64,000 nucleotides of DNA, taken from NCBI GenBank assembly GCA_963836235.1, contig CAWIIP010000002.1, positions 96,001 to 160,000 on the forward strand. Direction: 5' to 3'. The position numbers were made by a program, and so were the translations under genes. Below the pieces are notes generated by a model. It had not been told where the DNA came from. It searched no databases and was given only the letters and a program-made list of their open reading frames with translations. Source of the DNA: an uncultured Pseudomonadota bacterium. GTDB lineage: Bacteria; Oederibacteriota; Muellerivitia; Muellerivitales; Muellerivitaceae. Positions 20,365-39,299 of the stretch are shown here, one piece after another (within the stretch, counting starts at the first letter, position 1; each line of letters opens with the position of its first letter).

Positions 20365-23300
20365 TTAGTGAAGAACAGCGATTTTGCCCCATTTACTTTC
20401 CTGCGTAGTCCCATTCTCGGTTTCCAATCGGTAGAGATAAAGTCCGCTTGCTACCGATTCACCCAATTGATTTTGCAGGCCCCACACAAGATCGTTCAAA
20501 CCAGCCCCACCTTCAGCGGAAGTCTGGTACACCAATTCTCCGGCAATACTAAAAAGTGTCAAATGGATCAGTCCGGATTGGTTGAGGGTTACCAGGAACT
20601 TGATGTTTTCCCCGCCTCTTGAAACATTCGGGGCCGCCACAACCAATTGCGCCAACCCATTGTTCGAAGTCGGTGTAAATGTTTTCTCTCCACGCTGGAC
20701 CATGGCCACTTCCCCTTTGGGAGTAAGCGTGCAAGTGGGATTCGGCCTGCAAGATGGCGGTATCCCGCCCGATGACGTTACCAGGTTACCCTGATAATAA
20801 ACCGCGTAATGCAGGTCGTTGCTATAAGTGGTTCCACCTCCCACTCCACAAGGGCTGTACCAAATGGCGTCATTCGAAAAATTGGCGAAATTGGCTAAAT
20901 GAACCGCGGTTTGAATATTAGTCCAAGTCACCCCCGCTCCCAACGTCGCCGTGCTGGTATCGGATACCGTGGTCTCCCAATTTGCTTGGTGGCTTCCATC
21001 CGGACCACAGGCCGGGGAAAAACTGGCAGTATGAATTGCCACTCCCGAAACCGCCGTACAGGCGGGACCGTAACAACCTCCATAATTGACGGCTCCGACA
21101 AGTCCCTGACCGGTCGTGTCGTCCACCCAGAACTTGAGGGTGATCTGGTTAAGATTAATCGGAACGGTTCCCCCATTGATCACCTCAAAAGTCTCGTTCG
21201 ATTCGTTGGCCGTGCAAGTCGTGAACTCCTTTAGCTGCAAGCTAACCGAACTGGTACCACAAGCCACACCCGGAGTGGGGCTTGGAGTAAAGGTCGGCGC
21301 GAGCGTAGCTGTTTTTGTGGTTGTGGGCGTCGGCGTCAAGTTTTTCGTAGGAGTTTTAGTCGGCGTAAAGGTTAACGCCTTCGTCGCAGTCCCTGTCGGG
21401 GTTTTGGTAAAGGTATTTGTAGGCGTCTCGTTTTTCGTTTGAGTTTTCGTTGCCGTAAAGGAAGGAGTGTTGGTGGTTGTACGGGTAGGTGTTTTCAAAC
21501 TTGTCGTAAAAGTCGGCGTGAGAGTAGCCGTTTTCGTTGGAGTCCGAGTTTGTGTAGGTGTAAGGCTATTGGTGGGAGTTTTAGTCTGTGTCCGAGTGGG
21601 TGTCTTCGTCATCGTATTCGTGGGTGTATAGGTATTTGTATAAGTAATCGTATTAGTGGGCGTCCCTGGACTTGGCGTCCATGTCGGGGTAAAAGTCGGA
21701 TCAAGGGTTGGAATCGGGCTCGTGATACAATTTGTCACGGGACAAGTGCCGAAACCATAAACTTGGCCGCTGGCTCCATCCCCCACAAACCATCCACCGT
21801 TACCTGCCGCGATGCCTTCCGTATCATAAAACTGGTTCCCTGAGCTACTTCCCTGAATCGTTCCAAGCGGAGTCCCATTGAGGTCAAACACACCCACCTC
21901 ACCGAACCCATCCGTCACGTAAACTAGGCAGTTGCCATAGACCGAAATGAAATTAGCCGAGAGAAGATTCGTGTCTTGGGTGACATCCCACTGATTAATG
22001 AAACTTCCCTGAGGAGTGAAAACCTGCACAAAACCAGTATTCCAATCCGCAACATAAACATTTCCCGACGCGTCCAGCGCCAATCCCGAAGGCGTGTCAA
22101 AGGTTCCATATCCTGTCCCACCCGGACCACCCCACTGGGTAAGCGCCGCTCCCGCTGAGTTGAAAACCTGGATCCTTTGGTTCCCCGAATCCGCCACATA
22201 AATACTCGTTGCCGCCGAATTAACCGCAATTCCAAATGGTCCCTCGAGCTCCCCCGTCCCTGTTCCCATTTCTCCCAATTGGGTAACAGGCGTCCCACTA
22301 CTGGCAAAAATATCCACCTGATCGAGATCTTCATCCGTCACGTAAATGTTTCCACCGCCATCCACCGCCACACCTACTGGCAGGCCAAAAGTACCAAGGC
22401 TGATCGCCGGTGTTTGGGGAACGCCAGCGGAATTAAAAATATCAACCGTGTTCATCGAATCATCCGCTACGTAAACATTTCCTTGCGGGCCCAAAGCTAT
22501 CCCCCAAGGCTGGGAAACAGCCCAGGCTGAAGTAGATTCACAGAATAAGAGGGCCGGCGTGGGAGTGATAGTGGGAGTCGCGGTAATAGTGGGCGTTGCG
22601 GTCACCGTTGGGGTTATCATGGGAATTGAACAATTGAATTTTTCAAGGGCTCCGTTGTCACTGGCCGAACCGATGTAAACCCCTCCCTGCGGGTCCACAG
22701 CGACAGCCTGGGCATCATAAACATCGGCGGTTGCGCAATTGCTGATGAAATTGAAATTCGAATCAAATTTCCGATACTGTCCCGATTGGGTAATATAAAT
22801 ATTCCCTTGCCAGTCTTTGGCCATTTGATGAGGGAAGTCCTCGTTTCCTGAATCTTCCAAGATTCCATAGTTGAATATCGTGCTACCCGGAGCGGTTTGG
22901 ATATATTGGTTGATCCCATGGTTAGGCGTGAGGATATCCGCCACATAGAGGGTCACGGGTGTCCCGCCCGTTCCACTTTCCACCAACACCCCTCCCATGG
23001 CTCCAATCGCCGGACCGCCGACCAGGGACATCGTTGATACTGTCCCTGTGGCCTCATTCACTCGGTAAACTTTATTCGAGGAACCCCCTACATAAAGATC
23101 ATCATTATTCGCTCCGTCCACGAAAAGGGCCTGCACCCCATCCCCAATATTGAAAGTCGCGGGTGAACTTCCACCTGAAACCAGAATTTTGTGGACTTCC
23201 TGGTTGTCACCAACGAAAAGATACTGGGATTGGGAAATTCCCATGACCAAAGCCGTAATGTTAGAGAATAACCCGCTGGGGACCAGCAACGGGCCGAAGG

Positions 23301-26300
23301 TCACCCCATTGGAAGGGTTTACCGCCAGGACCGTGGTCCCGGCCCCAACATAAAGGGTTCCCAGACCCGAGGAATTGTAGGCTAAACCATCCGTGGAACC
23401 CACAAAAGTAGTACCGCCACTGGGAACGTTCCAGGCCACTTGGCAGCAAACGGCCGTGGAAGTGGGTGTAAAGCTCAAGAGGGGTGTGAATGGTGGAATA
23501 GCCGTAGGAGAGCCTGTCGGAGTGGGGGTTATCGTCGGGCTGGAGGTGGGTGTGGGGCTCACGGTAACGGTAGGGCTGGGTGTTAAAGTGGGAGTGGGTG
23601 TCGGGCTCAAAGCGGGGCAGCTCGCCTGGAATTGGTTTACTTGATTGTTGATCGAATCAACCACATACCAACCATTGTTTCCCACCGCGACGCCTTTCGT
23701 ATCCGCGAAGGAGGTACTGCCGCCCTGGGTGAAAGCCAGAACATCGCCGTTTTCGTCGAATGTTCCAACCGTCCCAAAACCATCCGAAACATAAACCAGT
23801 CCGGTGGGTCCTACCGCGATGAAATCTGCGGTCAAGAGAGGCGTACTCCAATTGCCGTTACTTTCATTCCATTGGGTGACATTCCATTGGCTGAGGAAGG
23901 CCCCCTGGCCGTTGAACACTTGTACCAATCCAGTGTCCGAATCCGCCACAAATATATTCCCAGAAGAAGAATCCGCCGCGATTCCAGCGGGGGAACCGAA
24001 TGTCCCGTTCCCGCTGATCCCAGGCGTTCCCCACTGATTTAAATAAGTCACCGACGGGATTGATGGGTTCACCAGGAATTCTTGGATGCGCTGATTTCCT
24101 TGATCCGCCACATAAAGGGTCGTTCCTGACGAACTGGTTGTTAAGGCTACTCCGTAAGGCTGTTCAAATTCCCCGTTACCGCTGCCAGCTGGCAAACCCC
24201 ACTGAGTCACCGGAGTATCCGATGGGCTGAAAACATATATTTGGTTCTGGGCATTGTCCGCCACGTAAACAAATCCGTTCCCGTCCACCACCACCCCCTC
24301 GGGATCGTTTAAAAGACCCCGCCCAATAGGCGCCAAGGAAACGCCGCTGGAAGTGAAACTATCAACCTGTCCCATAGAATCGTCCGCCACATAGATATTG
24401 CCCGTATTGGCCAACGCCACCCCGCACCCTTGAGTCACCAAAAGGGTTTCGACCGGTGAACAGCTAATCGGCGTGGAGGTGGGAGTCGCGGGTAAACAGG
24501 CGAATTTCATGAGGGCCCCGCCGTCACTTTGAGAACCCACATAAACCCCTCCCTGCGGATCAACCGCGATGGATTGGGCGTCCGGCACTTCGGTGGTGGT
24601 GCAACTGCTGATAAAATTAAAATCCGGAGCGAATCTCCGGTATTGCCCTGATTGGGAAAGGTAAATATTGCCATCCGGGTCCTCGGCCATTTGGTGGGGG
24701 AAAATGTCGTTACCTTGGTCTTCTAAAGTTCCATAGTTGAAAATCGTGCTACCTGGAGCGGTTTGGATATATTGGTTGATCCCATGGTTAGGCGTAAGGA
24801 TGTCCGCCACATAGAGGGTCACGGGGGTCCCACCGGTTCCGCTTTCCACCAACACCCCTCCCATGGCGCCGATCGCCGGACCGCCCGATAGGGTAAGAGT
24901 AGACACCTTCTTAGTGGACTCGTTCACCCGGTAGACATTGTTCGAGGATCCTCCCACGTAAAGGTCGTCTTGATTTGATCCGTCCACGAAAAGGGCCGCA
25001 ACCGTATCCCCAATATTAAATGTCGCGGAAGAACTCCCTCCCGGAACCAGGATTTTGTGGACTTCTTGGTTATCTCCGACGAATAGGTACTGGGACCGTG
25101 AGACTCCCATGGCCATGGACGAAATGTTTGAGAAAATTCCGGAAGGAACCGGCAAGGGGCCGAAGGTCACCCCACTGGAAGGGTTTACCGCCAGAACCGT
25201 GGTCCCTGCCCCAACATAAAGGGTTCCCGGACCCGAGGAACTATAGGCCAAACCATCGGTGGAACCCACGAAAGTAGTACCGCCGCTGGGAACGTTCCAG
25301 GCCACCTGGCAACAAACCGAAGGACCGACCGTAGGAGTGGCGGTTGGATAGGGCGTCGCGAAAGGCTTTAAATAGACGAAAACCCGGCTGCGGTTGTGGT
25401 TGGCCACATAAAGATTGCCGTCGTCGTCAAAAACGGCCGAATAGGATTGTTGGTCGAAATCATTTAAGTGGGTAACTGGGTTATCGGCCACCAATGGATT
25501 GGCCAGCACCACCAAAGCATTGTTATAGGGATAGCTTTGGGCGTCAGAACCCGCCACCAACACACTGTCATCGGGACTTATGGCCGGTTCCCAGGGATTG
25601 GCGATGGAAGCATTTTGGGGATTGGCGTCGCCCGCCGAGGTAAAGTTATTCAACCCTCCCACGCCATAAACGGCCGAGGCTGGAACCCCGAACAAGGGGG
25701 TAGTGGAAGAGGTGTTTTGGATGGCAGGCGCGTTCCATCGAAGAAGCCTCCCATCCCCATTGAATTCTAGCGAATGGTCCCCCACGAATAGGTTTCCATA
25801 GTGGTCCAAAACTGCCGATCCAGCCATATTCAGGTTGGTTTGGCTGGGGACGCCGTTTGGCTGGTCGACGATCGTAGAGGCAGCGTCTGGCTGTCCCAGG
25901 ATGATATCGACCACTGGATTTGTCAGCGGATTTCGAATCCGCATGACCCGGCTGGCATAGGCGTCGGTGAACCACAAAAATCGGTCGTTCGGATCCACCG
26001 CCAAACCTTCCACGTGGCCGGGAGATCCCGAGGCATTGGTCAAGCTTACCGAACCCCCGCCCAAGAGGGAGATAGGTGAAGTCAGGGTTAAGGTTTGGGC
26101 AGCCGATTCCCCGTTGACCAAAGGAAGATTGTAAATCCAAAGCTGAGCTCCTCCAGGAGCGATAGCCCATAAGTGGCCCATTTTGTCCGGCTTAATCCGG
26201 CCAAATCCGCCACCAAAAAAGGGCTGGCTGGGGGTGCCCCCGATGAGGCCATCCACGCGGGGGCCGTTTTGGAACCCAGCTGGACCGTTCGACGGCATAT

Positions 26301-28008
26301 CCCAAAAACGGATGACGTTGTCCGATTCCACCACCTGGGTTATCCCTTTATAAGCGGATATCGCCACACCAGCAGTGTAATCCATCCCGTGATAGCCGGG
26401 CGAATTTTGCAATCCATAACGATAGGGTTTATAAACATCCACGTCCGCCGAATGGGCGATTCCGGACTGGGGCGTGGGAATCGGCGCCGGATAACGCCAT
26501 ACATCTTGTAGAGCCCCCACAAAACCACTAGAGATGAAGACATTTCCCAATCCATCTACTCCTATCGAACCGTCAATATCCCCGATGTTCCAAGTTGGCG
26601 AATTATTTCCCGTCAGGTCCGAAAAAGTAAAAGGCGCCTGGTCCCCTGCGGTTCCGTTCGATGCCGGGCCTTGCAGGTTGTCGCTCAACAGGGATTTGAC
26701 CGGCTGGCTGGTGATGACGGGAGGCGTTCCGGCCCCAAGGGCAACCTGGTAAAGGACGATATAACTTGCGTAGCCGTTGAGGTAAGAAACCCATAATCCC
26801 CCCGTTGTTCCGGCCGAAGGGGCTCCCCCGATTCCACCCATTGCGACTCCGCCGGTGATGGTGGGCGGGGCGTCCCATTCAAGCCCCAAGGGACTGCCGG
26901 AAGTACCGGAGATGGCGGCGCTAGGAACGGCGACCATGTTGGTCCCATAGATGGGTTCCCCGGAGGCGGCGTAACCAGAGGGTTGAAAAATCATAACCTC
27001 GCGGCTGGGGACGTTTGAATTGGGAAGGGCGGTGGTGTAGACATCACCCGCGTTATCGACTCTCACCGCGATGGGCGAGTACATATTCGTGCTATCGTTG
27101 GTCGTGAAGGAGCCCTGTCCCAACACGACGTCCGCCGTGGAGGCGGGCATGCCCGGATTGTGGGCGTTTGGGTTTGGAAAACGCAGGACCCGGTTGTTTC
27201 CATTATCCGCCACCCATAAGTTACCCCAAACATCCGCCGCCACCCCGGCCCGCCAATCCGGCGAGGGATAAAATTGGATCGTGGAGGCCGTAGGTTCCGC
27301 ATTACCTTGATTGTTTTGGACCGTAGTGAAATTGGGCTGGCCCCAAACACCCGAGGCCGTGACCGGGGTTCCCACTTGGAAAGCGGCAATGTCGGACCAG
27401 TTGAAACGCAAAACCCGGTTATTGAAAAAATCCGGGACATAGAGATCTCCCTGTCCGTCCACAGCCATGTTCCCGCCGGTCCAGACCTCCGCCAAACTCT
27501 CCATGTCATATCTCAAACCGCAAAGGCAGTTGGAATCGGCGGGTACGGGCGTGGGATAGGTCTGAAAATTGCCGTCATGGTTGCATCCGGTATGCTGGAA
27601 ATCGGGTTGGCCCAACACCACCGTGGCGTTGAAACCCTTTTGGTCGGACAATGGATTGGACGAAAGTCCTGAGACAGGCATTCCGAGCACTCGGTTGTTG
27701 CCCGCTTCGAAAACGTAAAGCATTCCATGCACAGGATCAACGGTGGCGCTGGCCGGGCTAAACAGACTACCGGCAGTGGCCTCATTGAATTTAGTTTCGC
27801 CAAAGGCTGAGTTGGGGATGCCATAATCCCCTTGGCCCAGGACCTTATCGGCCCAAAGGTCACCCGCGATACCCCGAGTGGGGAGGGCGGTTTGTGCGCT
27901 GGATAACAGCGGAAATGAAAAATACAGGGTGGCGAATAGTGCCACCCCGAGTCCAACATAATTACGACCGTAAATACCAGTTTTCTGGTTCATATCTTGA
28001 GTTTTCAC
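20365..28008 (-). CDS. Giant secreted NHL/beta-propeller protein (2547 aa) with a CBM3-like domain and a C-terminal T9SS-CTD-like domain
   Basis: Start is GTG 28008 or ATG 27993. An NHL module is followed by two copies each of two propeller types, Thr/Pro(Lys) linkers and a CBM3-like segment. It ends AAPNVSR...[10 protein letters not shown]...GKIAVLH. Confidence 0.85.
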
Positions 28009-28068: not shown

Positions 28069-31000
28069 TTAATGCAATATCACCATTTTTCCTCGTTGAG
28101 TAAGGTTGGAAATCCCATCACTAGCTTCAATTTCGTAAATATAAAGGCCGCTCGCCAATTGGTTTCCCGATTGATTTTTCAAATCCCAGGACAAGCTATT
28201 CCAGCCGCCATTCCCTTCGAACGAAGTTTCATAAACATTTTCTCCAGTTACAGTAAAGACCGTAACATTCACTTTCACGGATTGATTTAGATTCACCAAA
28301 AATTTAATAGGCTCGCCATTTCTAGAAATATTAGGTGCAGCGATGGCAAAGGATGAAGCGTTAGGCGTGGGCGAAGGGGTGATCGTCGGAGAAGGCGTAA
28401 AAGCGGGAGTCGGTGTCTGGTTGCCGATGAGTTTGGCCAAGGATTTAAAATTCCCTGTAATAGTGTTGGGTTCGATGACGCAGCTTTGCAGAACCGTCAC
28501 CCCTCCGCCCCCCAGCGACATGTAATCCTTCCCTTTCGAATCCACCCCCACTTCCCACACGTTACCCAGTCCCGTGCAGGTCTGGGCCAACACCCAGCTT
28601 GAGGTGAACCTCTCCAGAGTAGTCGGGTTGGTCACATAGAAATTACCCGCCCCGTCCGCCACCAGCCCCGAGACGCTCGGAATTCCCGTCACGAGGACCG
28701 TCGGTGATGACGAACTCCCTCCCGCCGTGTTGAACGACACGATCTCCCCGTTCCCGTTGTTCGCCACATACAGCACCCCGCCCACCACCACGATCCCCGT
28801 CGGCAGGCTTCCCGCGTTGTCCGTATAGGTCGCCACCAAAGAAAAAGTACCGCCGCTGACACTGTTGTATTGGTAAATATTTTGGTTGGTCGCGATAAAA
28901 AGCGACGTCGTGGCCCCTTGGGTGGTCACCGCCAGGCCCCTCACAGGTCCCAAAGCCCCCCCGCCGATCACCTGGATCAGTCCGTAACTCGGGCTGAATT
29001 CCTCTACCTCGCCGTTTGTCGAGTCCCCCACGTAAATATTTCCCGATCCATCCACCGCCACCGCCTCTGCGTCCACCATCGAGCCGGTTGGGCCCGTTGC
29101 GAGGGACTCCACCGGCGCCCCACCGGTGAGGGGGAAAACCTCCAGCAGCTTGTTTTGGTTCAAGCCATCCGTTACATACACCATATCTCCCGCCACCGCC
29201 AGCCCCTCGGTCTGCATGACCAGCCCCGTGAAGCTCTCGTTCACCCCCTGGCAGCAATTCGGGGTCGGCGTGGGGCTGGGTTCGATGACGCAGCTTTGCA
29301 GAACCGTCACCCCTCCGCCCCCCAGCGACATGTAATCCTTCCCTTTCGAATCCACCCCCACTTCCCACACGTTACCCAGTCCCGTGCAGGTCTGGGCCAA
29401 CACCCAGCTTGAGGTGAACCTCTCCAGAGTAGTCGGGTTGGTCACATAGAAATTACCCGCCCCGTCCGCCACCAGCCCCGAGACGCTCGGAATTCCCGTC
29501 ACGAGGACCGTCGGTGATGACGAACTCCCTCCCGCCGTGTTGAACGACACGATCTCCCCGTTCCCGTTGTTCGCCACATACAGCACCCCGCCCACCACCA
29601 CGATCCCCGTCGGCAGGCTTCCCGCGTTGTCCGTATAGGTCGCCACCAAAGAAAAAGTACCGCCGCTGACACTGTTGTATTGGTAAATATTTTGGTTGGT
29701 CGCGATAAAAAGCGACGTCGTGGCCCCTTGGGTGGTCACCGCCAGGCCCCTCACAGGTCCCAAAGCCCCCCCGCCGATCACCTGGATCAGTCCGTAACTC
29801 GGGCTGAATTCCTCTACCTCGCCGTTTGTCGAGTCCCCCACGTAAATATTTCCCGATCCATCCACCGCCACCGCCTCTGCGTCCACCATCGAGCCGGTTG
29901 GGCCCGTTGCGAGGGACTCCACCGGCGCCCCACCGGTGAGGGGGAAAACCTCCAGCAGCTTGTTTTGGTTCAAGCCATCCGTTACATACACCATATCTCC
30001 CGCCACCGCCAGCCCCTCGGTCTGCATGACCAGCCCCGTGAAGCTCTCGTTCACCCCCTGGCAGCAATTCGGGGTCGGCGTGGGGCTGGGTTCGATGACG
30101 CAGCTTTGCAGAACCGTCACCCCTCCGCCCCCCAGCGACATGTAATCCTTCCCTTTCGAATCCACCCCCACTTCCCACACGTTACCCAGTCCCGTGCAGG
30201 TCTGGGCCAACACCCAGCTTGAGGTGAACCTCTCCAGAGTAGTCGGGTTGGTCACATAGAAATTACCCGCCCCGTCCGCCACCAGCCCCGAGACGCTCGG
30301 AATTCCCGTCACGAGGACCGTCGGTGATGACGAACTCCCTCCCGCCGTGTTGAACGACACGATCTCCCCGTTCCCGTTGTTCGCCACATACAGCACCCCG
30401 CCCACCACCACGATCCCCGTCGGCAGGCTTCCCGCGTTGTCCGTATAGGTCGCCACCAAAGAAAAAGTACCGCCGCTGACACTGTTGTATTGGTAAATAT
30501 TTTGGTTGGTCGCGATAAAAAGCGACGTCGTGGCCCCTTGGGTGGTCACCGCCAGGCCCCTCACAGGTCCCAAAGCCCCCCCGCCGATCACCTGGATCAG
30601 TCCGTAACTCGGGCTGAATTCCTCTACCTCGCCGTTTGTCGAGTCCCCCACGTAAATATTTCCCGATCCATCCACCGCCACCGCCTCTGCGTCCACCATC
30701 GAGCCGGTTGGGCCCGTTGCGAGGGACTCCACCGGCGCCCCACCGGTGAGGGGGAAAACCTCCAGCAGCTTGTTTTGGTTCAAGCCATCCGTTACATACA
30801 CCATATCTCCCGCCACCGCCAGCCCCTCGGTCTGCATGACCAGCCCCGTGAAGCTCTCGTTCACCCCCTGGCAGCAATTCGGGGTCGGGGTCCATGTTGG
30901 AGTGGGAGTGATGGTAGGACTTGGGGTAGGGGTCAGTGTATTGGGGAGTGTGGGAACCGGTGTCACGCATGGAAATGTGGGAGTAGGACCCGGAGTCTGG

Positions 31001-34000
31001 CAACCACGGATGACCGTTACCCCCGAAAAGCTTGGTTGACTTGGTCCAGCACTGTTCAAAGTCACGAATATTTCGTCGCTCGAGTTGACCGCCACCCCAT
31101 TGGGGCCACCGGGGAGAGGGATGTATAGCTCAGGAAGGTTGAAGGCTTGTCCAAAAACGTACAAACCGTTGACGCCGGTGGTGTAAAAGTTCCCCCAGGC
31201 ATCGGTTCGAATTCTTTCCACTGAAACCATTGGAATCGGGGTTCCTGCGGTGTAGGGAGCCGTTGCGTCATAAGGGATGATTTCGGTGCCATAAGCGACA
31301 TAGATGGAGCAACCTGATTTCTGTACACCCGTGGGAACGTGGTTGCCGGTCGTATGGGCGAATTTGACGGGAGTTGTAGAAAAATCCCCAGTACTGGCCG
31401 TCCCGGTAAAAAGGTAAATATATCCTCCGGTGGCCGTTTGAACTGAAACATAAACGGAAGTCATAGACCCGTTGGTTTCGACCCAAAGGCCCCTGGGTTC
31501 GGTCCCTGTCGTTGAAAAGACCGCAAGGGGCTTAAGGGACGAGGATGCCAAGGGTGAAGTGGATGGATAATAAGGTCCGAATTCGTATACGGCTTCCCTT
31601 AGATAATCAGCCACGTAGACGTCCCCGAAAGAGTCCAAAGCTATGTCCGTGGGGCTCGCAAAAAGGGTCCCGTTGTACCCGGTCACAGTGGCCAAGGCCG
31701 TGCCTCCTGTTTGGGCGAAAACTTTTAATTCTTTGTTTCCCCCGTCCGCCACGTAAAGATAGTTGCTGTCCGCCGCGTCCCCATTCGGGGCGTCCAAGCC
31801 CTGGAAGGAAAGGGGCAGGCCGGTGTAACAGGAAGGCGTGGAAACCACGGTAGGAATTGCGGTTGGGGTGGGCAGGGGCGTGCTGGAAAGGGGCAAGGGG
31901 GCCTGGTAGACCAGGGCATAGGACCGGTTTTGGTTCGTGGTGTAAAAGTTGTTCTCATTGTCAAAAACGCCCGAAAGCTCGGTGGCGCTAACGTAATCGC
32001 TCAAGGTCGTCCAGGGGGAAGCGGTGGTCGGGTCGAACTGGGAGAGCGGGTTGGGGATGACCACCGGGAAGGGCGATCCTCCCCTGTTCGAGACGACCAT
32101 GTAACCATCGTCCGAGGTGAAGGCCGGTTCCCAGACGCCCGAAATATTCGGGGCGCCGGGCGGCACAAAGGTTTTCAGGGCGGTCGTGCTCCCCTGCATT
32201 TCGTAGGTATGGACCTCTGCGGCGGTGATGGAGGTGTTAAAAAGGCAGGTGTTTGAGTTGTTGACTAGGGCCGAGGCCTGGTATTGGAGCAACCTTGTGT
32301 TCCCGTTGGATTCTTCCCAAAAATCCGAAATATAGAGGTTCCCATGATGGTCCATGGCAAGGGACCCCGGATTGGATAATACCTTGTAGGTCGGCGGCCT
32401 ACTGCATCCATCATAAGCCCCGGAACCAAAAGCCCCTCCCCCGTTGCATCCCGTTGTGGTGGAATTGGCCTGTCCCAGGATGAAATCCACCTTGGGAGCG
32501 GGGCCCAAGGGATCCCGGACGCGAAAGACGCGGTTGGTCGCGGGGTCCGCGACCCAAAGCCAGGAGACGGCCCCATTGGTAGCGGTCACCGGCACCATAT
32601 CGGTGACATTATCGAGACTAAGGGTTTGCAAGGGACCCGACGGCTTCAAAACTGGGATGTTTTCGTTGAGGATGAAAGCGGGCGTCGCGTAGGAGGTTAA
32701 AGGCAGGTTATAAACCTGCATATAGTGATCCCCCAGATTTTCCGCCACCGCCCAAAGTTTCTGGGGATTCGCCTGGTCCACATGGACCCGGCCAAAAACT
32801 GTGACCCCCGTGTTCTCGGCGTCAGTGGCATTCACTCCCGCGTATCCGTCCGGAGCCTTGCCGTTGGCGAGGGAAAGGTCCCCGGGGCCGCCGGACATGT
32901 TCCAATACATGATCCGGTCGTGGTCAGAAATGACCAACTGGGCAGGGCTGACGTTCTCGGCCACCGCCACGCCTTTGCCCTGGTTGAAATTCGCTGGCCC
33001 TACCGTGTTCACCATCCCTGTTTGGGTCTGCTTGAAAATATCTACGTCCGCCGATTCCGCGACGCCAATGGTCGGGGTTCCCGGGGGCGGAAAGCGCCAG
33101 ACGTCCATGTAAGTGGAGGTGCCGCCGACATAAGCGTACCCATTGGAGTCGAATGCCACACCGCGCGGGCCTGTAATCTGCCAGGCGTTTTGCGAGGAAC
33201 CCGTGGGCGGGGGATAGGGATAATAGAAATAGGGAGAAACTCCACTGCCACTCGGGGGAAAGGGGTTGTGATCGTTGGGTGTACCCGAGGCCGTGGTCCA
33301 TACTTTGCCCTGCAGGAGCACTTTGGGGGCGGTCACGATGGGCGGATAGGGTTTGGGATAATGGGTGTATTGAAACTGGAACTCGACGACTTGGTTCATT
33401 TCAATAGACGCATTCTGGGTATAAGCCGCCCAGAGATTGCCGTTATTGTCAAATTCCAGACCTAAAGGACTTCCGTCAATGTTAGTGATCACCCTTTCCG
33501 CGGCTTGGCCCGAAGTGTAAAGGGGAATCCCCGCGCTAACGGAGGTCGGCTCAAAAATCACTATTCTCCCATTGCCCACGCTGTCCGATACGTAAACATT
33601 CCCCAAATTGTCCACCCTTACCGCGATGGGTTCGGTCAGGCCCTTCGTGCCGGTTACCGGTACTTGTCCATATCCATAGTTGAAATCCGGTTGTCCCAAA
33701 ACCACATCGGCGCCCTTCGCGGGGGCGCCACCGTTGTAGGCCGGATTGGTTGGGTCCGTGATCAGGGGAAAACGCAGGACCCGGTTATTCGCATAATCCG
33801 CCACCCAGAGGTTGCCCCAGGGATCGATGGCCGCACCGCCGGAAGCGTGGTTGAAACTCAAAGTGGAGTTGCTGGGATAGGCCACGACAGTAGAATCGGG
33901 GGGTTGTTGGTTGGACCCGTAACTCGTGAAATCCGGTTGGCCCCAAACGAAAGCGGCCGCAACCGCGGTCCCATTCGTGAAATTGGCGATATCGGCCGCG

Positions 34001-34641
34001 TTATAGCGAAGCACCCGGTTGTTGCCCGGGTCCGGCACGTAAAGGTTGCCCTGGGAATCCACCGCCATGTAAGAGCTGGTGTTGAATTCGAACGGGGAAT
34101 AATCGTCCTCCATGCTTCCGCAAAGGCTGGAGGAACTGGGCTGGGGGAAATTGGGATAGTCCTGGTAATTGGAATCCCCGTTGCAGGTGCAGTGGCTGAA
34201 ATCCGGCTGGCCCAATACGATGTCCGCGTTATAGCCAAGCTGGCCCATGGGCGCGTTGGGCTGGAATTCGCCGACGTTCAAAAATCCCAGGACCCGGCTG
34301 TTTCCCGCGTCCCAGACGTATAACCGATTCGGCGTCTGCGAGCGGTCTACCACAGGAGCGCCAGGATTGAAAACACCTCCGCTGGACGCCTGATTGGGCC
34401 TGTAGTCTCCAAAAGCGGAATTCGGGATATTGATGGCCCCACCGCCAACCGGCCCGTCCGTTTGGCCCAAGATCACGTCCGCCCAAAGATCTCCCGAAAC
34501 GCCCCGGGGGGGGAGCACCAAGGGCAAAGCGTTCAAAAACTCCGGCAATAAAAAATATAGGGTGGCCAATAATGCCACCCCAAAGCCAAAATACTTATGA
34601 CTGTAAATACCAGTTTTCTGGTTCATATCTTGCGCAACCAC
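28069..34641 (-). CDS. Giant secreted NHL/beta-propeller protein (2190 aa) with three identical 270-aa domains and a C-terminal T9SS-CTD-like domain
   Basis: Start is GTG 34641 or ATG 34626. It has the same GDLWAD..LG N-terminal module as its neighbours and ends AAPNISR...WDLKN...LASGLYIYEI...GKMVILH. Confidence 0.85.
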   Translation of the reverse strand: MVAQDMNQKTGIYSHKYFGFGVALLATLYFLLPEFLNALPLVLPPRGVSGDLWADVILGQTDGPVGGGAINIPNSAFGDYRPNQASSGGVFNPGAPVVDRSQTPNRLYVWDAGNSRVLGFLNVGEFQPNAPMGQLGYNADIVLGQPDFSHCTCNGDSNYQDYPNFPQPSSSSLCGSMEDDYSPFEFNTSSYMAVDSQGNLYVPDPGNNRVLRYNAADIANFTNGTAVAAAFVWGQPDFTSYGSNQQPPDSTVVAYPSNSTLSFNHASGGAAIDPWGNLWVADYANNRVLRFPLITDPTNPAYNGGAPAKGADVVLGQPDFNYGYGQVPVTGTKGLTEPIAVRVDNLGNVYVSDSVGNGRIVIFEPTSVSAGIPLYTSGQAAERVITNIDGSPLGLEFDNNGNLWAAYTQNASIEMNQVVEFQFQYTHYPKPYPPIVTAPKVLLQGKVWTTASGTPNDHNPFPPSGSGVSPYFYYPYPPPTGSSQNAWQITGPRGVAFDSNGYAYVGGTSTYMDVWRFPPPGTPTIGVAESADVDIFKQTQTGMVNTVGPANFNQGKGVAVAENVSPAQLVISDHDRIMYWNMSGGPGDLSLANGKAPDGYAGVNATDAENTGVTVFGRVHVDQANPQKLWAVAENLGDHYMQVYNLPLTSYATPAFILNENIPVLKPSGPLQTLSLDNVTDMVPVTATNGAVSWLWVADPATNRVFRVRDPLGPAPKVDFILGQANSTTTGCNGGGAFGSGAYDGCSRPPTYKVLSNPGSLAMDHHGNLYISDFWEESNGNTRLLQYQASALVNNSNTCLFNTSITAAEVHTYEMQGSTTALKTFVPPGAPNISGVWEPAFTSDDGYMVVSNRGGSPFPVVIPNPLSQFDPTTASPWTTLSDYVSATELSGVFDNENNFYTTNQNRSYALVYQAPLPLSSTPLPTPTAIPTVVSTPSCYTGLPLSFQGLDAPNGDAADSNYLYVADGGNKELKVFAQTGGTALATVTGYNGTLFASPTDIALDSFGDVYVADYLREAVYEFGPYYPSTSPLASSSLKPLAVFSTTGTEPRGLWVETNGSMTSVYVSVQTATGGYIYLFTGTASTGDFSTTPVKFAHTTGNHVPTGVQKSGCSIYVAYGTEIIPYDATAPYTAGTPIPMVSVERIRTDAWGNFYTTGVNGLYVFGQAFNLPELYIPLPGGPNGVAVNSSDEIFVTLNSAGPSQPSFSGVTVIRGCQTPGPTPTFPCVTPVPTLPNTLTPTPSPTITPTPTWTPTPNCCQGVNESFTGLVMQTEGLAVAGDMVYVTDGLNQNKLLEVFPLTGGAPVESLATGPTGSMVDAEAVAVDGSGNIYVGDSTNGEVEEFSPSYGLIQVIGGGALGPVRGLAVTTQGATTSLFIATNQNIYQYNSVSGGTFSLVATYTDNAGSLPTGIVVVGGVLYVANNGNGEIVSFNTAGGSSSSPTVLVTGIPSVSGLVADGAGNFYVTNPTTLERFTSSWVLAQTCTGLGNVWEVGVDSKGKDYMSLGGGGVTVLQSCVIEPSPTPTPNCCQGVNESFTGLVMQTEGLAVAGDMVYVTDGLNQNKLLEVFPLTGGAPVESLATGPTGSMVDAEAVAVDGSGNIYVGDSTNGEVEEFSPSYGLIQVIGGGALGPVRGLAVTTQGATTSLFIATNQNIYQYNSVSGGTFSLVATYTDNAGSLPTGIVVVGGVLYVANNGNGEIVSFNTAGGSSSSPTVLVTGIPSVSGLVADGAGNFYVTNPTTLERFTSSWVLAQTCTGLGNVWEVGVDSKGKDYMSLGGGGVTVLQSCVIEPSPTPTPNCCQGVNESFTGLVMQTEGLAVAGDMVYVTDGLNQNKLLEVFPLTGGAPVESLATGPTGSMVDAEAVAVDGSGNIYVGDSTNGEVEEFSPSYGLIQVIGGGALGPVRGLAVTTQGATTSLFIATNQNIYQYNSVSGGTFSLVATYTDNAGSLPTGIVVVGGVLYVANNGNGEIVSFNTAGGSSSSPTVLVTGIPSVSGLVADGAGNFYVTNPTTLERFTSSWVLAQTCTGLGNVWEVGVDSKGKDYMSLGGGGVTVLQSCVIEPNTITGNFKSLAKLIGNQTPTPAFTPSPTITPSPTPNASSFAIAAPNISRNGEPIKFLVNLNQSVKVNVTVFTVTGENVYETSFEGNGGWNSLSWDLKNQSGNQLASGLYIYEIEASDGISNLTQRGKMVILH
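28467..30888. repeat. Three apparently identical 810-bp in-frame tandem repeats
   Basis: The sequence at 28471, 29281 and 30091 is the same, and the alternative-frame ORF translations recur unchanged at 810-bp offsets. Confidence 0.95.
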
Positions 34642-34691: not shown

Positions 34692-34722
34692 AGTGACGGA
34701 AACGATCTCGTTTATTCCAAAA
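34692..34722 (-). promoter_or_regulatory. Putative ECF-sigma promoter upstream of the giant cargo genes
   Basis: Minus strand reads TTTTGGAATAAA-N10-TCCGTCACT, the same pattern and spacing as 36326-36356. Confidence 0.55.
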
Positions 34723-34820: not shown

Positions 34821-35702
34821 TTAGTGAATCTCAACATTTTTACGTTCAACAAAAAATCCAGCTCTGACCTCAATTTGATAAAAGCCGACTCCCGCTTTTA
34901 GCCCATTAGACACATGGCCATCCCATTCAAAGACCCAATGACCTGGCCCTAAGGTGCCGTTATACAAGGGTTGTATCTGAATTCCCTTTGAATCCAAGAC
35001 ATTTACAGTTAGAGCCGTTGGAGTACTTAAATGGACAACGGCCGAAACACTCGAGTAATCGTTTTTAGAGGTTTGATCCAAATTTATTGGTTGAGAAGGA
35101 ATCCGGACCTTGGTTAGAGATTCAGACTGACCTTCATAAGAGGGTGAAATCGATGCCTTCATTTGCTTTGTTTCGGATCCCGGTTGAATCCTATGAGCGG
35201 GCATGTCGTTATGCGGGGATGAAGTATCTTGATCCATACTCTTGGATTCTATTTCGATGGACTTCTGTTCGGTCTGTTTTGAACGTATTTCAACGTTAGA
35301 TTTTGAGGTGTTTAGAGATTCGGATTGGCTTCTTTGGTTTGACTTTAATCCCTCCCCATTCAAGACTGGAACTGTCCTCGGTTGGACTGCGTTAACCGGA
35401 ATACCCCAACTGCCGACTATAACCTTCAATTCCCCGCCCCATTTATTCCAACCTAAATAAGTCGCGCTCAGTCCTAAGATGAATAAACCAGCACCAATCC
35501 ATGGTTTAATCCCGCTTCCGGGATTTGAGGAAGGTCCATCTGGTTCTTGCGGTTCGGGGTACCCATAACGGGTATAGGCCGCCTGAGCTAGCCCAGCGAA
35601 TTTCTCCGTCAATTCTTCCGAAGCCCATAGGGCATCGCTCAGAAGCTGTTCCTCGGCTTCCGTCAAACCTTCCATAAAAAATTTTTCCACCAGGTCAGGC
35701 AC
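34821..35702 (-). CDS. Putative membrane anti-sigma factor with a C-terminal FlgD-Ig/T9SS-CTD-like domain
   Basis: Overlaps the sigma gene end by 8 bp. It has an acidic helical N-terminus, one TM helix (WIGAGLFILGLSATYLGW) and a polar linker, then VNVLDSKG...FEWDG...GVGFYQIEV...KNVEIH. Confidence 0.7.
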   Translation of the reverse strand: MPDLVEKFFMEGLTEAEEQLLSDALWASEELTEKFAGLAQAAYTRYGYPEPQEPDGPSSNPGSGIKPWIGAGLFILGLSATYLGWNKWGGELKVIVGSWGIPVNAVQPRTVPVLNGEGLKSNQRSQSESLNTSKSNVEIRSKQTEQKSIEIESKSMDQDTSSPHNDMPAHRIQPGSETKQMKASISPSYEGQSESLTKVRIPSQPINLDQTSKNDYSSVSAVVHLSTPTALTVNVLDSKGIQIQPLYNGTLGPGHWVFEWDGHVSNGLKAGVGFYQIEVRAGFFVERKNVEIH

Positions 35703-36267
35703 GAGTTCCCTCCCGGAGGATATTTAGCACCAATTGTTTCAAGGCTTCCTTACAACGGGTCAACCGGGACATGACGGTACCTATGGGAATTTTCAAATTT
35801 TCGGCGATGACGGCGTAGCTTAGGTTGTCCTCGTCCCATAATTTCAAAAGCTCCCGACAGGGATTTCCCATCATATCTCTTTGAGACCTCACCAGCTGGA
35901 TCATCCTTTTCTTCTCATCTTCTACTTCCACCTGCCTTTCCTGTTGGACCAAAGCCGGGGCCGAAAGACTTTCCAATTCACTTTCCAGTTGGACTACTTG
36001 GCGTTTGCGCTTTCGAATACGCTCATAGCAAAGGAAAACGCAGATGCGGTAAAGCCACCGGTTCAGGCTGGAACGAAACTCGAATTCTGGAAGTTTGCGA
36101 AGGGCCACCATAAAGGCTTCCTGGGCCACATCCTCGGCCTCCGGATCCTGGTAACCCAATATGTAAACGCAAGTTTTGTAGAGTTTAGTCCGATAAGTAT
36201 GAAAAAAATATTTTTCCGCTTCCTCATCTTTTGCGAGAAGCTTTTGTACCAATTCACGATCTTCCAA
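35695..36267 (-). CDS. ECF-type RNA polymerase sigma-70 factor
   Basis: Region 2 motif AEDVAQEAF...WLYRI and region 4 motif LSYAVIAENLKIPIGTVMSRLTR. Start placed at TTG 36267, 6 nt after AGGAG; the ORF track uses 36318. Confidence 0.92.
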   Translation of the reverse strand: MEDRELVQKLLAKDEEAEKYFFHTYRTKLYKTCVYILGYQDPEAEDVAQEAFMVALRKLPEFEFRSSLNRWLYRICVFLCYERIRKRKRQVVQLESELESLSAPALVQQERQVEVEDEKKRMIQLVRSQRDMMGNPCRELLKLWDEDNLSYAVIAENLKIPIGTVMSRLTRCKEALKQLVLNILREGTRA

Positions 36268-36325
36268 TGACTTCTCCTGATAAGAATAAAAAGCGGTTAA
36301 ATAATAAATGGCGTCCATAACAATA

Positions 36326-36356
36326 AGTGGTGGATCAAGATGGTTTTATTCCAAAA
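36326..36356 (-). promoter_or_regulatory. Putative autoregulatory ECF promoter
   Basis: Minus strand reads TTTTGGAATAAA-N10-TCCACCACT, about 60 nt upstream of the proposed sigma start. Confidence 0.55.
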
Positions 36357-36397
36357 TGCCCAATAAAACCCTTTTGTCATGTCATTAGGCCCAAATT

Positions 36398-37858
36398 TTA
36401 GGGGGAAGCACGGTATTTATTCAACCATACTTTGAGGGCCTGGTCGTCCGGCCTTAAATCAAGCACCTTTTGAAAACATTGGATGGCGTCGGTTTTTCGA
36501 TTCGCTTGATAATAAATCTTACCCATCTTCCACCAAGCCTGTAGGTTTTGTGGATCTTGTTGGACAGCTTTTTGATATAGCACCAAGGCCTCCACGAGAT
36601 GACCCTGTGTAGCCATTTGATCCCCTTGGGATGTGAAGTCGGCAGGAATATCAAAATGAAGTGCAAGGCTATTTCCGGCTTCCCTATCCTTTTCAGTTTG
36701 GGGAGCAGCTACGGTGGAAGGTGTAGAGGGAACAGTAATTACAGTGGATGTAGGTAAAGAAGACCCGTTCCCTCCCGCTTGAGTGGGTGACAGAGGGACC
36801 GACATCCCGGTTAAAGACGCGGATGTACCAGGGGTCCTTTTTGACTGCGAGTTCGATAAAGATTGGGCGTTGGAAGGCGCCAGAACGGACCTTGAATTTT
36901 TAGGTCTTTGCCCCAAAAAATAAGAGAGGCTGAATCGGTTCGAATCGGAAAGATTCCCGGAAGGGGTGTAAGCATAATCCAGCCCAAAATCAGATAAAAT
37001 TATGCCCGCCCCAATAGAAATGTTAGAAAATCCCTCATAACCGTTGTCATTGAACGGGATTTGATAACCCGCCCTTAAAAAATACATGTGCCGATAGGAA
37101 GCTTCGATTCCGGCCTGTAGGTAATCCAAAGAATTAGACTGGAGAGCGTTGCCGAGGGCCGTCAAAATCTTTGTGGAAGAATCCAAAGAAAAATCCCAAG
37201 AGGCGCCTGTTTTCAGAACCGAAACGAGAGGGCTTCCAAAAGAGCCCCAACCGGGGGCAAGGTAATCCAGGCCGATCTTCCATCCCTTCCAAGGGTTCAA
37301 GAGCACTCCCACATCCGCGGTAAGAAAAGAATAAGAACTACCCACAATTTCTTGCTGCGAATAATGGAGAGCCGTCCCTGCGGCAAATCCCTTGAGAAGG
37401 GTTATCCCCCATCCGGCCTGAAAACCAAAACGACCAGCGCTGTAACTGGGAGTCAGGGAACCGGAGGTGTCACGCCCCTCAAAAGTTCCGTAATCAAGAT
37501 AGCTACCCGCTAGGCCTATCCCCCCAAAACTACCCGCCGGTATTGCGAGAACACCCGTTTCTTGGGCCGCATCCACCAGCCCAAAATAACTATCGAAAGC
37601 CACTTGCGCCCTAATCAAGGAGGCCAATCCAGCGGGGTTGTTGAAAAGAGCCGAGGTGTCGTCGGCCACCCCAACAAAAGCTGGTCCCAGGATCACCGAA
37701 CGGGCGGAGTAACCCAGATCTTGGATGGAGTTTGATTGGCTGGCGGCATCGTACAAGGTCTGAGAAGTTTGAGAGCTGGCTTGGCCCGAGAGAAAAAAAA
37801 ATAAAGCAATAACTCCTATAGCGGTCTTGTGAACGGAATTGCCTTTTATTAAATTCAT
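36398..37858 (-). CDS. PorV/PorQ-family outer-membrane barrel with a Ser/Thr/Pro linker and C-terminal TPRs
   Basis: SARSVILGPAFVGVADDTSALFNNPAGLA matches the PorV/FadL-like N-terminal signature. Beta-strands end LDYAY...RFSLSY. TPRs include EALVLYQKAVQQDP...AIQCFQKVLDLRP. Start ATG 37858 follows GAGG. Confidence 0.8.
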   Translation of the reverse strand: MNLIKGNSVHKTAIGVIALFFFLSGQASSQTSQTLYDAASQSNSIQDLGYSARSVILGPAFVGVADDTSALFNNPAGLASLIRAQVAFDSYFGLVDAAQETGVLAIPAGSFGGIGLAGSYLDYGTFEGRDTSGSLTPSYSAGRFGFQAGWGITLLKGFAAGTALHYSQQEIVGSSYSFLTADVGVLLNPWKGWKIGLDYLAPGWGSFGSPLVSVLKTGASWDFSLDSSTKILTALGNALQSNSLDYLQAGIEASYRHMYFLRAGYQIPFNDNGYEGFSNISIGAGIILSDFGLDYAYTPSGNLSDSNRFSLSYFLGQRPKNSRSVLAPSNAQSLSNSQSKRTPGTSASLTGMSVPLSPTQAGGNGSSLPTSTVITVPSTPSTVAAPQTEKDREAGNSLALHFDIPADFTSQGDQMATQGHLVEALVLYQKAVQQDPQNLQAWWKMGKIYYQANRKTDAIQCFQKVLDLRPDDQALKVWLNKYRASP

Positions 37859-37865
37859 GATGGCC

Positions 37866-39299
37866 TCAACGAACCACAGCGAATTTCTGGGTCTTGAGCC
37901 TTTCCGTGTTTCCTGAATCATAGTTTAAGGTGACCACATAATAGTAAATTCCGGGTGGCAACCGCGTCATGTCAAAAGAAGTGGTTTGGATGCCCATCGC
38001 TTTCCGGTCCGTGATATCCATGACTAATTCACCATTTTCATTGAGTATCTTCAGATCCATTTGGCCACTACCAACCATGTAATAAGCGAGGGTTGCCTGA
38101 TTGCCTCTGACAGGAGAAGGGTAAATGAAACACTGTCCTTCCAGGGGTGGATTAGAACCGAAATTAAACGGAAGCGGGGTTGGGCTCTGTGTCGCGGTTG
38201 GGCTTGATGTCGCGGTCGGAATGGATGTCGAGGTTGGGCTGGGTGTCGAGGTTGCAATGGATGTCGGGGTTGGGCTGGGAGTTGGAACCACGCACCCCAG
38301 CTTCACCAAACCACCATTATCTTGCGTAGACCCTACATAAACTGAGCCCGAACTATCTAAGGCGACTGCTTGAGCGTCATAATCTGACGGCAAGGAACTG
38401 CAGTTGGCTAATACTGCCAAGAAATTGGGGTCAAAAGCCCAATAACCTCCCGAACCCACTAAATAAATTTCGCCAGATCCGTTCTTCGCCATTTGGTGGG
38501 GATAAATGAATCCTCCCGTTGTAACGGTTGAAACATACCCGTAAGTCAGACTTCCAGCCGAAGCCTGGACAAACTTCAAAAGACGGCTATTCAAGGGGTC
38601 AGAGTAATAAAGCGTTGAAGGTGCCCCTCCAGTTCCCTCCTGCAACAAAAGCCCCCAATTGGGTCCTCGGGCGGGCGTGGGCGCATCCGGTGAAAAAATT
38701 AACTTTGCGGTTACTGGACCCGCTTGCGTTACCTTATAGGCGTTGCCAGAGCCGCCACCGACATAAATATCCTCACCCACGCTTTGGTCATCCGCATAAA
38801 CAGTGTCAAGCGTATCGGATGGGAAGCTGAAAGTGGCCGCCCTCGCCCCACCAGGCAGGGCAACCTTAAATACCGCATGATTACTATTATCCGCCACATA
38901 AAGGAATCCATCCTGGCCGCAGGTCATCATATTGACACCTCCATAACTGCCAGGCAAAGTCCCAATAGTAACTCCGTCAGTCGGGTTGACCGACTGAATC
39001 ACCGAAACTCCTCCGACATAAAGAGTTCCAGGCCCGGCGGGATCATAGGCCAACCCATTTGTATCAGTGCTAAAGGTTGTGTTTCCTTCGGGATAGGACC
39101 ATAAAGTGTTACAACAAAAGGTTGCAATAGGGGTTGGGGTTTGAGCCATGGCCTTTTCACACCAAACGATTCCCATAAAAACCGAAACAAGACCTATGAA
39201 AATAAATTTATTTTTTTTAAATAAATAATACTTTGGGCATTCAAAGAAGAGGAGGGCTTTGGTGGAGGCGAAAACTGTTCCAAAATAGTCTAATAACAT
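37866..39299 (-). CDS. Secreted single beta-propeller protein with a Thr/Pro linker and T9SS-CTD-like domain (start uncertain)
   Basis: The CC...[14 protein letters not shown] module is shared with the giant proteins. It ends IYPSPV...LPPGIYYYVV...KFAVVR. Confidence 0.8.
   Translation of the reverse strand: MLLDYFGTVFASTKALLFFECPKYYLFKKNKFIFIGLVSVFMGIVWCEKAMAQTPTPIATFCCNTLWSYPEGNTTFSTDTNGLAYDPAGPGTLYVGGVSVIQSVNPTDGVTIGTLPGSYGGVNMMTCGQDGFLYVADNSNHAVFKVALPGGARAATFSFPSDTLDTVYADDQSVGEDIYVGGGSGNAYKVTQAGPVTAKLIFSPDAPTPARGPNWGLLLQEGTGGAPSTLYYSDPLNSRLLKFVQASAGSLTYGYVSTVTTGGFIYPHQMAKNGSGEIYLVGSGGYWAFDPNFLAVLANCSSLPSDYDAQAVALDSSGSVYVGSTQDNGGLVKLGCVVPTPSPTPTSIATSTPSPTSTSIPTATSSPTATQSPTPLPFNFGSNPPLEGQCFIYPSPVRGNQATLAYYMVGSGQMDLKILNENGELVMDITDRKAMGIQTTSFDMTRLPPGIYYYVVTLNYDSGNTERLKTQKFAVVR

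Follow-up and report, generated by a model that had tools for sequence, protein, structure and literature searches.

The window analysed here is a 64,000-nt stretch of an assembled genome from an uncultured bacterium of the FCPU426 lineage (assembly GCA_963836235.1, contig CAWIIP010000002.1, positions 96,001 to 160,000; genome 3.97 Mb, 99.4% complete). It contains a compact group of genes for a small protein ending in a C-terminal domain (CTD) of the kind that a type IX secretion system (T9SS) uses, a PorV-family barrel with a tetratricopeptide repeat (TPR) tail (PorV-TPR), an extracytoplasmic function (ECF) sigma factor and its presumed anti-sigma factor, followed in this order by giant cargo genes. 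All of these genes lie on the minus strand. An earlier annotation made from the letters alone (the sequence-only reading) had given this gene content, order and shared orientation, and our open reading frame (ORF), Pfam and TIGR/NF model searches confirm them. The features are as follows.

37866..39299, minus strand: small CTD protein, 477-aa ORF (TIGR04183 23.7 bits, cut-off 23; PF18962 23.7 bits; NHL 21.4 bits).
36398..37921, minus strand: PorV/PorQ-family outer-membrane barrel with TPR tail, 507-aa ORF (NF033709 and TPR_2 matches).
36326..36352, minus strand: ECF-type promoter 5' of the sigma gene, GGAATAAA-N15-CACT (motif match).
35695..36318, minus strand: ECF sigma factor, 207-aa ORF (Sigma70_r2 45.2 bits; r4_2 26.8 bits; TIGR02937 71.6 bits, cut-off 42.9).
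34821..35702, minus strand: presumed anti-sigma factor, 293 aa, GTG start (overlap with the sigma gene, FlgD_ig match, AlphaFold2 model).
34692..34718, minus strand: second copy of the ECF-type promoter, 51 nt 5' of the first giant cargo gene (motif match).
28069..34641, minus strand: first giant cargo protein, NHL/SBBP propeller plus CTD, 2190 aa (NHL 131 bits; FlgD_ig 26.3 bits; TIGR04183 20.1 bits).
20365..28008, minus strand: second giant NHL propeller CTD protein, 2547 aa (NHL 159.6 bits; TIGR04183 23.0 bits).
14762..19831, minus strand: third giant NHL CTD protein, 1689 aa (NHL 70 bits; TIGR04183 23.5 bits).

The small CTD protein has a head that resembles a propeller, joined through a PT-rich linker to a T9SS type A-like CTD, and its true start is probably later than the ORF start, before the signal peptide KKNKFIFIGLVSVFMGIVWCEKAMA. 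PorV-TPR likely starts at M22 (position 37858) and comprises the barrel (residues ~67-336), an S/P/T-rich linker of ~90 aa and the TPR tail (~430-500). The sigma factor has only sigma-70 regions 2 and 4 and scores above the TIGR02937 cut-off, as an ECF sigma factor does; it probably starts at TTG 36267, because AGGAGA lies upstream and the resulting length of 190 aa is that of its orthologues. The GTG start of the 293-aa protein overlaps the sigma stop by 8 nt, an overlap also seen in most relatives. This protein has no signal peptide and a single hydrophobic stretch (residues ~66-88), and its AlphaFold2 model (mean predicted local distance difference test score, pLDDT, 64) shows three helices within residues 4-45 (pLDDT 80-90), a long low-confidence linker and a β-sandwich (residues 220-292, pLDDT ~90) that ends at the C-terminus. 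Its gene thus has the position and topology of an ECF anti-sigma gene (directly 3' of the sigma gene, overlapping it, with one membrane span encoded), and because of this position, the topology and the short helical N-domain we presume the 293-aa protein to be the anti-sigma factor.

The four gene kinds recur. Four cassettes are present in the genome in two gene orders, either small CTD protein, PorV-TPR, sigma and anti-sigma, or sigma and anti-sigma first, with small protein and barrel behind them in a variable order; an overlap of 4 nt between the genes for the small CTD protein and the barrel is frequent, whichever comes first. Median pairwise identities between the paralogous cassettes are 41.5% for the sigma factor, 42.5% for the anti-sigma N-domain, 38% for its immunoglobulin-like (Ig) domain, 38% for the barrel and 35% for the TPR tail, and this similar divergence of all parts fits duplication as a block. 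Within the family to which the genome belongs, 21 of 24 other members have anti-sigma homologues; of 16 genomes from outside the family, 1 gave a match, to the Ig part only, inside giant ORFs. Linkage was scored for 27 distinct anti-sigma homologues of candidate division FCPU426 relatives with their 8-kb flanks. A sigma gene lies immediately 5' in 26 of the 27, and in the 27th too once overlapping ORF calls are allowed. A PorV-like gene is found within 6 kb in 24 loci (TPR-tailed in 22 of these), and a CTD protein of <650 aa stands beside the barrel in 20. Two of the three loci that lack a barrel end with their contig, and the third has a split gene. Seen from the barrel, five related genomes have 16 complete PorV matches with a TPR tail, and every one adjoins an anti-sigma gene, 14 through an ordinary homologue match and two through a divergent anti-sigma type of 337-349 aa. 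Two other close sigma paralogues in the genome are paired with short ordinary anti-sigmas and have no PorV gene nearby. Thus the four genes travel together and the unit has been duplicated as a block, with a promoter (described below) before the sigma gene and before neighbouring large CTD genes; the linkage of sigma, overlapping membrane protein and PorV-TPR in other genomes, on which the sequence-only reading depended, is borne out by this synteny in paralogues and relatives alike.

A profile search (E <= 1e-30) places the anti-sigma factor in a family of 181 clusters at 50% identity, and all members named in any source are called 'hypothetical protein'. The full architecture, with a hydrophobic 19-mer between the N-domain and a C-terminal Ig domain, is present in 150 of 157 family proteins examined, and the linker measures 32-162 residues (median 76). 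One relative has a split anti-sigma gene (L035:7633-8303), the N-domain and Ig domain lying in overlapping ORFs of different frames, which is a frameshift or an assembly error.

The sigma gene and the first giant cargo gene have one promoter motif in common, which lies 5' of each. The window holds exactly two exact sites of GGAATAAA-N15-CACT, compared with 0.01 expected, for a pattern that was defined after the sites had been seen. Allowing up to two mismatches gives 8 sites in the window versus 5.9 expected, and so nothing beyond the two exact ones; a simple scan for sigma-70 promoters and terminators found no excess over shuffled sequences. The 27 related loci (347,819 nt) contain 34 sites of GGAATAAA-N12-16-(CGWCW or CACT) on the gene strand and 1 on the opposite strand. 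Sigma genes follow 18 of the 34, PorV-TPR genes 3 and other ORFs 12, with 1 site at a contig end. Counted by locus, the motif stands 5' of the sigma gene in 18 of the 27, and a counterpart of the second window site comes after the anti-sigma gene or the cassette in related loci. These 12 ORFs are mostly large (e.g. 2168, 2446 and 1110 aa with a CTD; further motif-preceded ORFs of 2582, 2615, 1609 and 1581 aa run to contig ends). The -10 element differs between loci but co-varies at both sites within a locus, and in the paralogous cassettes of the genome itself both the sigma gene and the cargo gene after it are preceded by GGAATAAA boxes. We take this recurrence in orthologous loci as independent support for the motif. 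Since the same motif precedes both the sigma gene and a giant cargo gene, the sigma factor very likely autoregulates and controls neighbouring secreted-protein genes, and the control of cargo transcription suggested by the sequence-only reading is thereby supported. We propose that the 2190-aa giant is a regulated output of the sigma factor. The second giant gene starts 60 nt after the first, from which we infer that the two are co-transcribed; the third lies 534 nt beyond the second and has no promoter motif of its own, and its membership in the regulon is uncertain.

An identical 26-nt promoter is found before and after the 2168-aa cargo gene of one relative (L015:8850 and L015:15643); the one behind it would serve the gene that follows. 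A 326-aa ORF present ten times in the genome (e.g. C1:469375-470355), probably an insertion-sequence transposase, returned near-identical weak scores in the sigma-model search. A search for sequencing runs listed no RNA run, and one soil DNA run with a small share of the words.

The C-terminal domain of the anti-sigma factor lies between two families. A CTD model made from the cargo proteins of the genome, with the anti-sigmas excluded, detects the 293-aa protein at E 1.2e-4 and its three paralogues at 2.7e-5, 1.5e-7 and 7.6e-10, and hhalign aligns the anti-sigma domain with the cargo CTD alignments over 75 columns (96% probability, E 3e-9). These comparisons point to a real, distant homology with the cargo CTDs; the common fold and the placement at the extreme C-terminus are likewise those of a type A CTD, and structure searches with the sandwich return both FlgD and PorU CTD folds. 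A type A CTD belongs to Sec-exported soluble cargo, whereas the 293-aa protein has a cytoplasmic N-domain and one hydrophobic span. FlgD_ig (PF13860, cut-off 27 bits) is matched by the four anti-sigmas of the genome at 29.5, 46.7, 49.2 and 36.4 bits, and neither TIGR04183 nor PF18962 matches the domain at E <= 0.01. The closest sequence relative is the Ig domain of the FlgD hook cap (PDB 7eh9, 7bhq and 3osv; E 3e-11, 24-30% identity): of the 28 PDB sequences listed at E <= 1 for the anti-sigma domain profile (alignment A3), six are FlgD (3e-11 to 2e-5) and none is a T9SS CTD. A model of eleven FlgD-like proteins of 220-228 aa from other phyla detects three anti-sigmas at 1e-11 to 1e-13, and cargo no better than 5e-5. 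The two alignments also differ in their motifs, YPNP, GLYY and K-AVL-R being present in the cargo CTDs (alignment A4), whereas A3 has no YPNP and shows F-WDG-L-G-A-G-Y-I-V instead. By these sequence measures the anti-sigma C-terminus is an FlgD-type Ig domain, nearer to FlgD than to any cargo CTD. FlgD itself, a substrate of flagellar export, has an N-terminal domain without counterpart in the anti-sigma factor. The FlgD encoded by the genome (G000:C4:916719-917162, 147 aa) consists of the N-terminal FlgD part only and has no Ig domain. In one cassette (cassette 4) the flagellar hook gene flgE lies directly 5' of the sigma gene (L054:8040-9944); a flagellar link of the FlgD-like domain on this ground was dropped, as the other cassettes have no flagellar neighbours.

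The barrel belongs to the PorV family at some distance from its named members. PorV-TPR scores 87.6 bits with NF033709 (PorV_fam, cut-off 90), or 90.3 bits when summed in the genome search, and 44.2 bits with TPR_2, and remains far below the equivalog cut-offs for PorV (NF033710, 22 bits, cut-off 250) and PorQ (NF033711, 54 bits, E 1.3e-14, cut-off 220). The barrel profile (A6) has a single match in the PDB, Flavobacterium johnsoniae PorV (6h3i_F, E 1.6e-11); the barrel as a single sequence found no PDB match, and the profile of the whole protein was swamped by TPR proteins. Paralogues of PorV-TPR match UPF0164 weakly, which we take to be a Treponema pallidum family. The genome contains 23 PorV-like ORFs, whose tails include FlgD_ig plus OmpA, with or without TPRs, in two, fn3 in three and other TPR arrays in two. 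In the first pair FlgD_ig lies inside the periplasmic tail beside the OmpA domain, and one of the two also has a TPR tail; the Ig domain thus serves in the periplasm independently of secretion. That TPR tails are exclusive to the cassette barrels proved wrong, since Pfam searches find other TPR tails in two further PorV paralogues. A CTD-protein gene lies within 6 kb of 12 of the 23, which suggests that each surface protein has a barrel of its own in this lineage, where no sortase was detected.

We propose that the small CTD protein is a surface sensor or a partner of its PorV-like barrel. Its head is variable: among 22 small proteins from related loci, 15 have NHL/SGL propellers, six PA14 plus CBM9 and one a ConA-like domain, and the four heads in the genome itself give a weak NHL match, PA14 plus CBM9, LamG plus DUF11, and no match. 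Pairwise identities of these heads reflect low-complexity linkers and were not used. An extra loop distinguishes the CTDs of the small proteins (8 of 8) from those of large cargo (1 of 17) in alignment A4. The PA14 plus CBM9 cassette and its orthologues flank CTD-tagged GH30/GH59 plus malectin plus CBM3 proteins, and the LamG cassette flanks GH9, GH8 and PL4-like proteins. Both the small CTD protein as a fixed fourth member and these glycoside hydrolase (GH) flanks had been overlooked in the sequence-only reading.

The cargo signal itself is, judged by its profile matches, a real relative of the T9SS type A CTDs. The genome encodes 116 proteins with the local CTD, and 114 of 148 CTD domain matches end <=12 residues from the C-terminus. 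Profile A4 is closest to the CTDs of PorU (6za2, 7.6e-10) and PorZ (5m11, 3.7e-6) and also matches CTDs in F. johnsoniae translocon complexes (8glk_D and 8glj_D). The 2190-aa giant has additional matches to PorU and PorZ CTD regions, and the TIGR04183 matches of the three giants all sit at their C-termini. The genome was searched for SprA, PorU and GldK, GldL and GldM, components expected of the T9SS-like pathway assumed by the sequence-only reading. An ORF of 2028 aa aligns with the SprA model TIGR04189 in three stretches (E 6e-33, 6e-21 and 2e-7), each below the cut-off, and has no match in Pfam or the PDB. GldK, GldL, GldM and Peptidase_C25 (PorU) were not found in searches for which the control genomes gave no positive control, and GldN was not searched; the PorU model matched only CTD parts. 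In the control genomes the GldL, GldM and C25 models matched nowhere, PorU never exceeded its cut-off, and GldK was matched in three genomes only, all of which presumably lack a T9SS. A LytTR response regulator and a histidine kinase precede the SprA-like gene (L057:7622-16006), and this pair may regulate the translocon.

Taken together, the genes form a conserved four-gene cassette of the FCPU426 lineage that consists of an autoregulated ECF sigma factor, an anti-sigma factor ending in an Ig domain, PorV-TPR and a ligand-headed small CTD protein. Our preferred but tentative interpretation is that the cassette is a trans-envelope signalling device like those of polysaccharide utilization loci (PULs), with a PorV-family barrel in the place of the TonB-dependent transducer. 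After export the small CTD protein would remain attached, by way of its CTD, to the PorV-like barrel of its own cassette, in the manner of PorZ, itself a propeller protein, on PorQ. Ligand binding at the surface would be relayed through the barrel to the TPR tail, which on its ~90-residue linker would meet the Ig domain of the inner-membrane-tethered anti-sigma factor in the periplasm. The anti-sigma factor would thereby be inactivated and the sigma factor freed to switch on its own operon and the adjacent genes for surface proteins or glycoside hydrolases. Two features make us favour the sensing of an outside ligand: a small CTD protein whose head is lectin-like or a propeller belongs to the fixed set of four, and sister cassettes have glycoside hydrolase genes beside them. 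We count two further points in support, the combination of FlgD_ig with OmpA and a TPR tail in the same periplasmic extension of one PorV paralogue, and the closeness of the cargo CTD profile to the CTDs of PorU and PorZ, which remain uncleaved in Porphyromonas gingivalis. It is conceivable, though we hold this broader claim with less assurance, that the cassette represents an undescribed signalling class, with a PorV barrel as transducer, a lectin or propeller CTD protein as sensor of a polysaccharide or surface ligand, a TPR tail engaging the anti-sigma Ig domain, and a sigma factor directing CTD-tagged glycoside hydrolases or giant adhesin-like proteins, which would make it the T9SS-coupled equivalent of a PUL in a lineage without detectable PorKLM/PorU.

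Several known systems share parts of this layout. In cell-surface signalling by FecA/FecR/FecI, an outer-membrane barrel acts with a single-pass anti-sigma factor and an ECF sigma factor, and Bacteroides PULs reportedly use SusC-like/anti-sigma/ECF sigma sets for 'trans-envelope signaling'. As in these systems, the barrel, the single-pass anti-sigma factor and the ECF sigma factor are encoded together, and genes for using an outside substrate, including those for glycan-degrading enzymes, would be switched on. Pfam and TIGR searches of the cassette proteins found neither a TonB-dependent transducer nor a FecR domain, so that the cassette is not of the FecIRA type; unlike Fec and SusC systems, its barrel is of the PorV family and reaches into the periplasm with a C-terminal TPR tail, and ligand binding would fall to a separate CTD protein. 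The sequence-only reading knew of no comparable system, and P. gingivalis PorA provides a partial precedent: it is described as a small surface CTD protein with a lectin-like head that is bound to PorV and acts upstream of the ECF sigma factor SigP, and its authors propose feedback on secretion function (PMC7712824). The small lectin-headed CTD protein, PorV and the ECF sigma factor are thus common to both; in the portion of that paper available to us, however, the PorA system works through a PorY/PorX two-component relay, has no anti-sigma factor and no porV linkage, and governs the secretion machinery rather than cargo. The cassette, by contrast, has an Ig-domain anti-sigma factor, a dedicated TPR-tailed barrel and tight gene linkage.

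PorU and PorZ retain their CTD in P. gingivalis, and PorZ docks on PorQ, according to the sections available of PMC10947112. As presented there, the PorQ-PorZ and PorV-PorU pairs resemble the cassette as we picture it in that a surface protein with a retained CTD is held by a barrel of the PorV family, but they serve cargo attachment with a sortase and anionic lipopolysaccharide (A-LPS), and their barrels are given without a TPR tail or sigma link. A further difference from PorV-PorU is that no PorU peptidase was found in the cassette genome in a C25 search that had no positive control. Dma anti-sigmas are single proteins whose domains reach from the outer membrane to the cytosol and which influence PUL expression (PMC13088901, seen in part). 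They too connect the cytoplasm with the outer membrane; judged by that partial account, the anti-sigma factor described here is not a Dma protein, as it ends in an Ig sandwich of ~75-85 aa without a barrel, the barrel being a separate protein. T. pallidum FadL-like proteins have 14-stranded barrels with a presumably periplasmic helical TPR extension at the C-terminus (PMC8407342). The order of barrel and TPR tail is the same, but the available part of that report describes no sigma/anti-sigma link and no CTD partner. No description of a PorV-linked anti-sigma factor, or of an anti-sigma factor with an FlgD domain, was found in open-access papers and bioRxiv.

A number of observations weigh against the signalling device. 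The anti-sigma N-domain, compared by sequence with Pfam and the PDB, has no significant match and thus none to a solved anti-sigma factor, and NHL is matched only weakly by the small protein of the window. As stated above, the promoter pattern was chosen with its sites in view. The cassettes share ancestry, and their recurrence does not equal many independent events. The two PorV paralogues with TPR tails outside the cassettes have no sigma gene nearby, and a TPR tail alone therefore implies no signalling. Finally, a sigma-type promoter lies directly 5' of PorV-TPR in three loci, so that the barrel may be output rather than input, or both, as FecA is.

The last two of these points also favour an alternative in which the cassette is a regulator and its regulon only, the sigma pair controlling a dedicated secretion set that consists of its own PorV-like barrel, the CTD partner of this barrel and the neighbouring cargo, while the Ig domain senses an unrelated periplasmic cue and never touches PorV-TPR. 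Barrel and small protein indeed lie within the sigma operon in the sigma-first gene order, and FlgD_ig is a widespread Ig-type module. We consider this alternative somewhat less likely than the signalling device, and the strongest of those weighed here. Against it stand the pairing of all 16 complete TPR-tailed barrels in the five relatives with an anti-sigma gene, the fusion of FlgD_ig with a TPR tail in the periplasmic extension of one PorV paralogue, and the placement of TPR tail and Ig domain on long flexible tethers from opposite membranes, which is unexplained if the two never meet.

The sequence-only reading had seen in the anti-sigma C-terminus the pattern of the cargo C-termini, and had inferred that the anti-sigma factor carries a membrane-tethered mimic of this signal, whose binding by the PorV-like protein or the translocon could report secretion load. 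In such a sensor the mimic would vie with cargo CTDs for the PorV-like barrel or for the TPR tail, and sigma activity would follow from cargo backlog or spare capacity. The resemblance stands as distant homology and a shared fold superfamily, detected by the cargo-only model and hhalign. The step from there to a signal mimic is weakly supported, and we regard such a secretion-load sensor as improbable: the domain is FlgD-type in Pfam, without YPNP and without TIGR04183 or PF18962 matches at E <= 0.01, and FlgD matches it better than any cargo does. PorV binds CTDs on the outer side of the outer membrane, and linkers as short as ~32 residues would, by our own reasoning, keep the Ig domain periplasmic. 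A load sensor also leaves the obligatory small lectin-headed protein and the glycoside hydrolase neighbours unexplained. That an ordinary ECF pair merely happens to lie among secreted-protein genes is very hard to credit, for although ECF pairs are common and some proximity is expected from ~116 CTD proteins and 23 PorV-like genes, the idea is already contradicted by the synteny counts (four cassettes in the genome, 24 of the 27 loci in relatives, and every one of the 16 TPR-tailed barrels). The two close sigma paralogues with short ordinary anti-sigmas and no PorV gene nearby speak against it too.

Within the 2190-aa gene, three tandem units with 810-nt spacing (window 28467-30386) are 100% identical over the 300 nt compared, which suggests that a 270-aa module of this giant propeller protein was duplicated within it very recently; Tandem Repeats Finder, with its period limit of 500, reported no repeat. 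The stretch just 3' of the giant cargo genes (window 5115-14025) encodes proteins of 2268 and 400 aa, both without a Pfam family, and a 313-aa FecR-domain protein (13084-14025) that resembles Leptospira LipL45/Lsa33 and whose gene is separate from the cassette.

If the signalling device that we favour is real, PorV-family barrels would have a second role, in signalling, beside the shuttling of cargo, and ECF cell-surface signalling would extend beyond TonB-dependent transducers. The anti-sigma family concerned is large and unnamed, and the cassette offers compact, testable parts: a sigma factor, a defined promoter, an anti-sigma factor and two small periplasmic domains. An organism of the FCPU426 cluster was among the validated cellulose degraders recovered as cellulose-bound single cells, according to the part of the study available to us (PMC7031533). 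The cassette would then illustrate the way in which substrate sensing is tied to enzyme secretion in an uncultured lineage of soil and peat.

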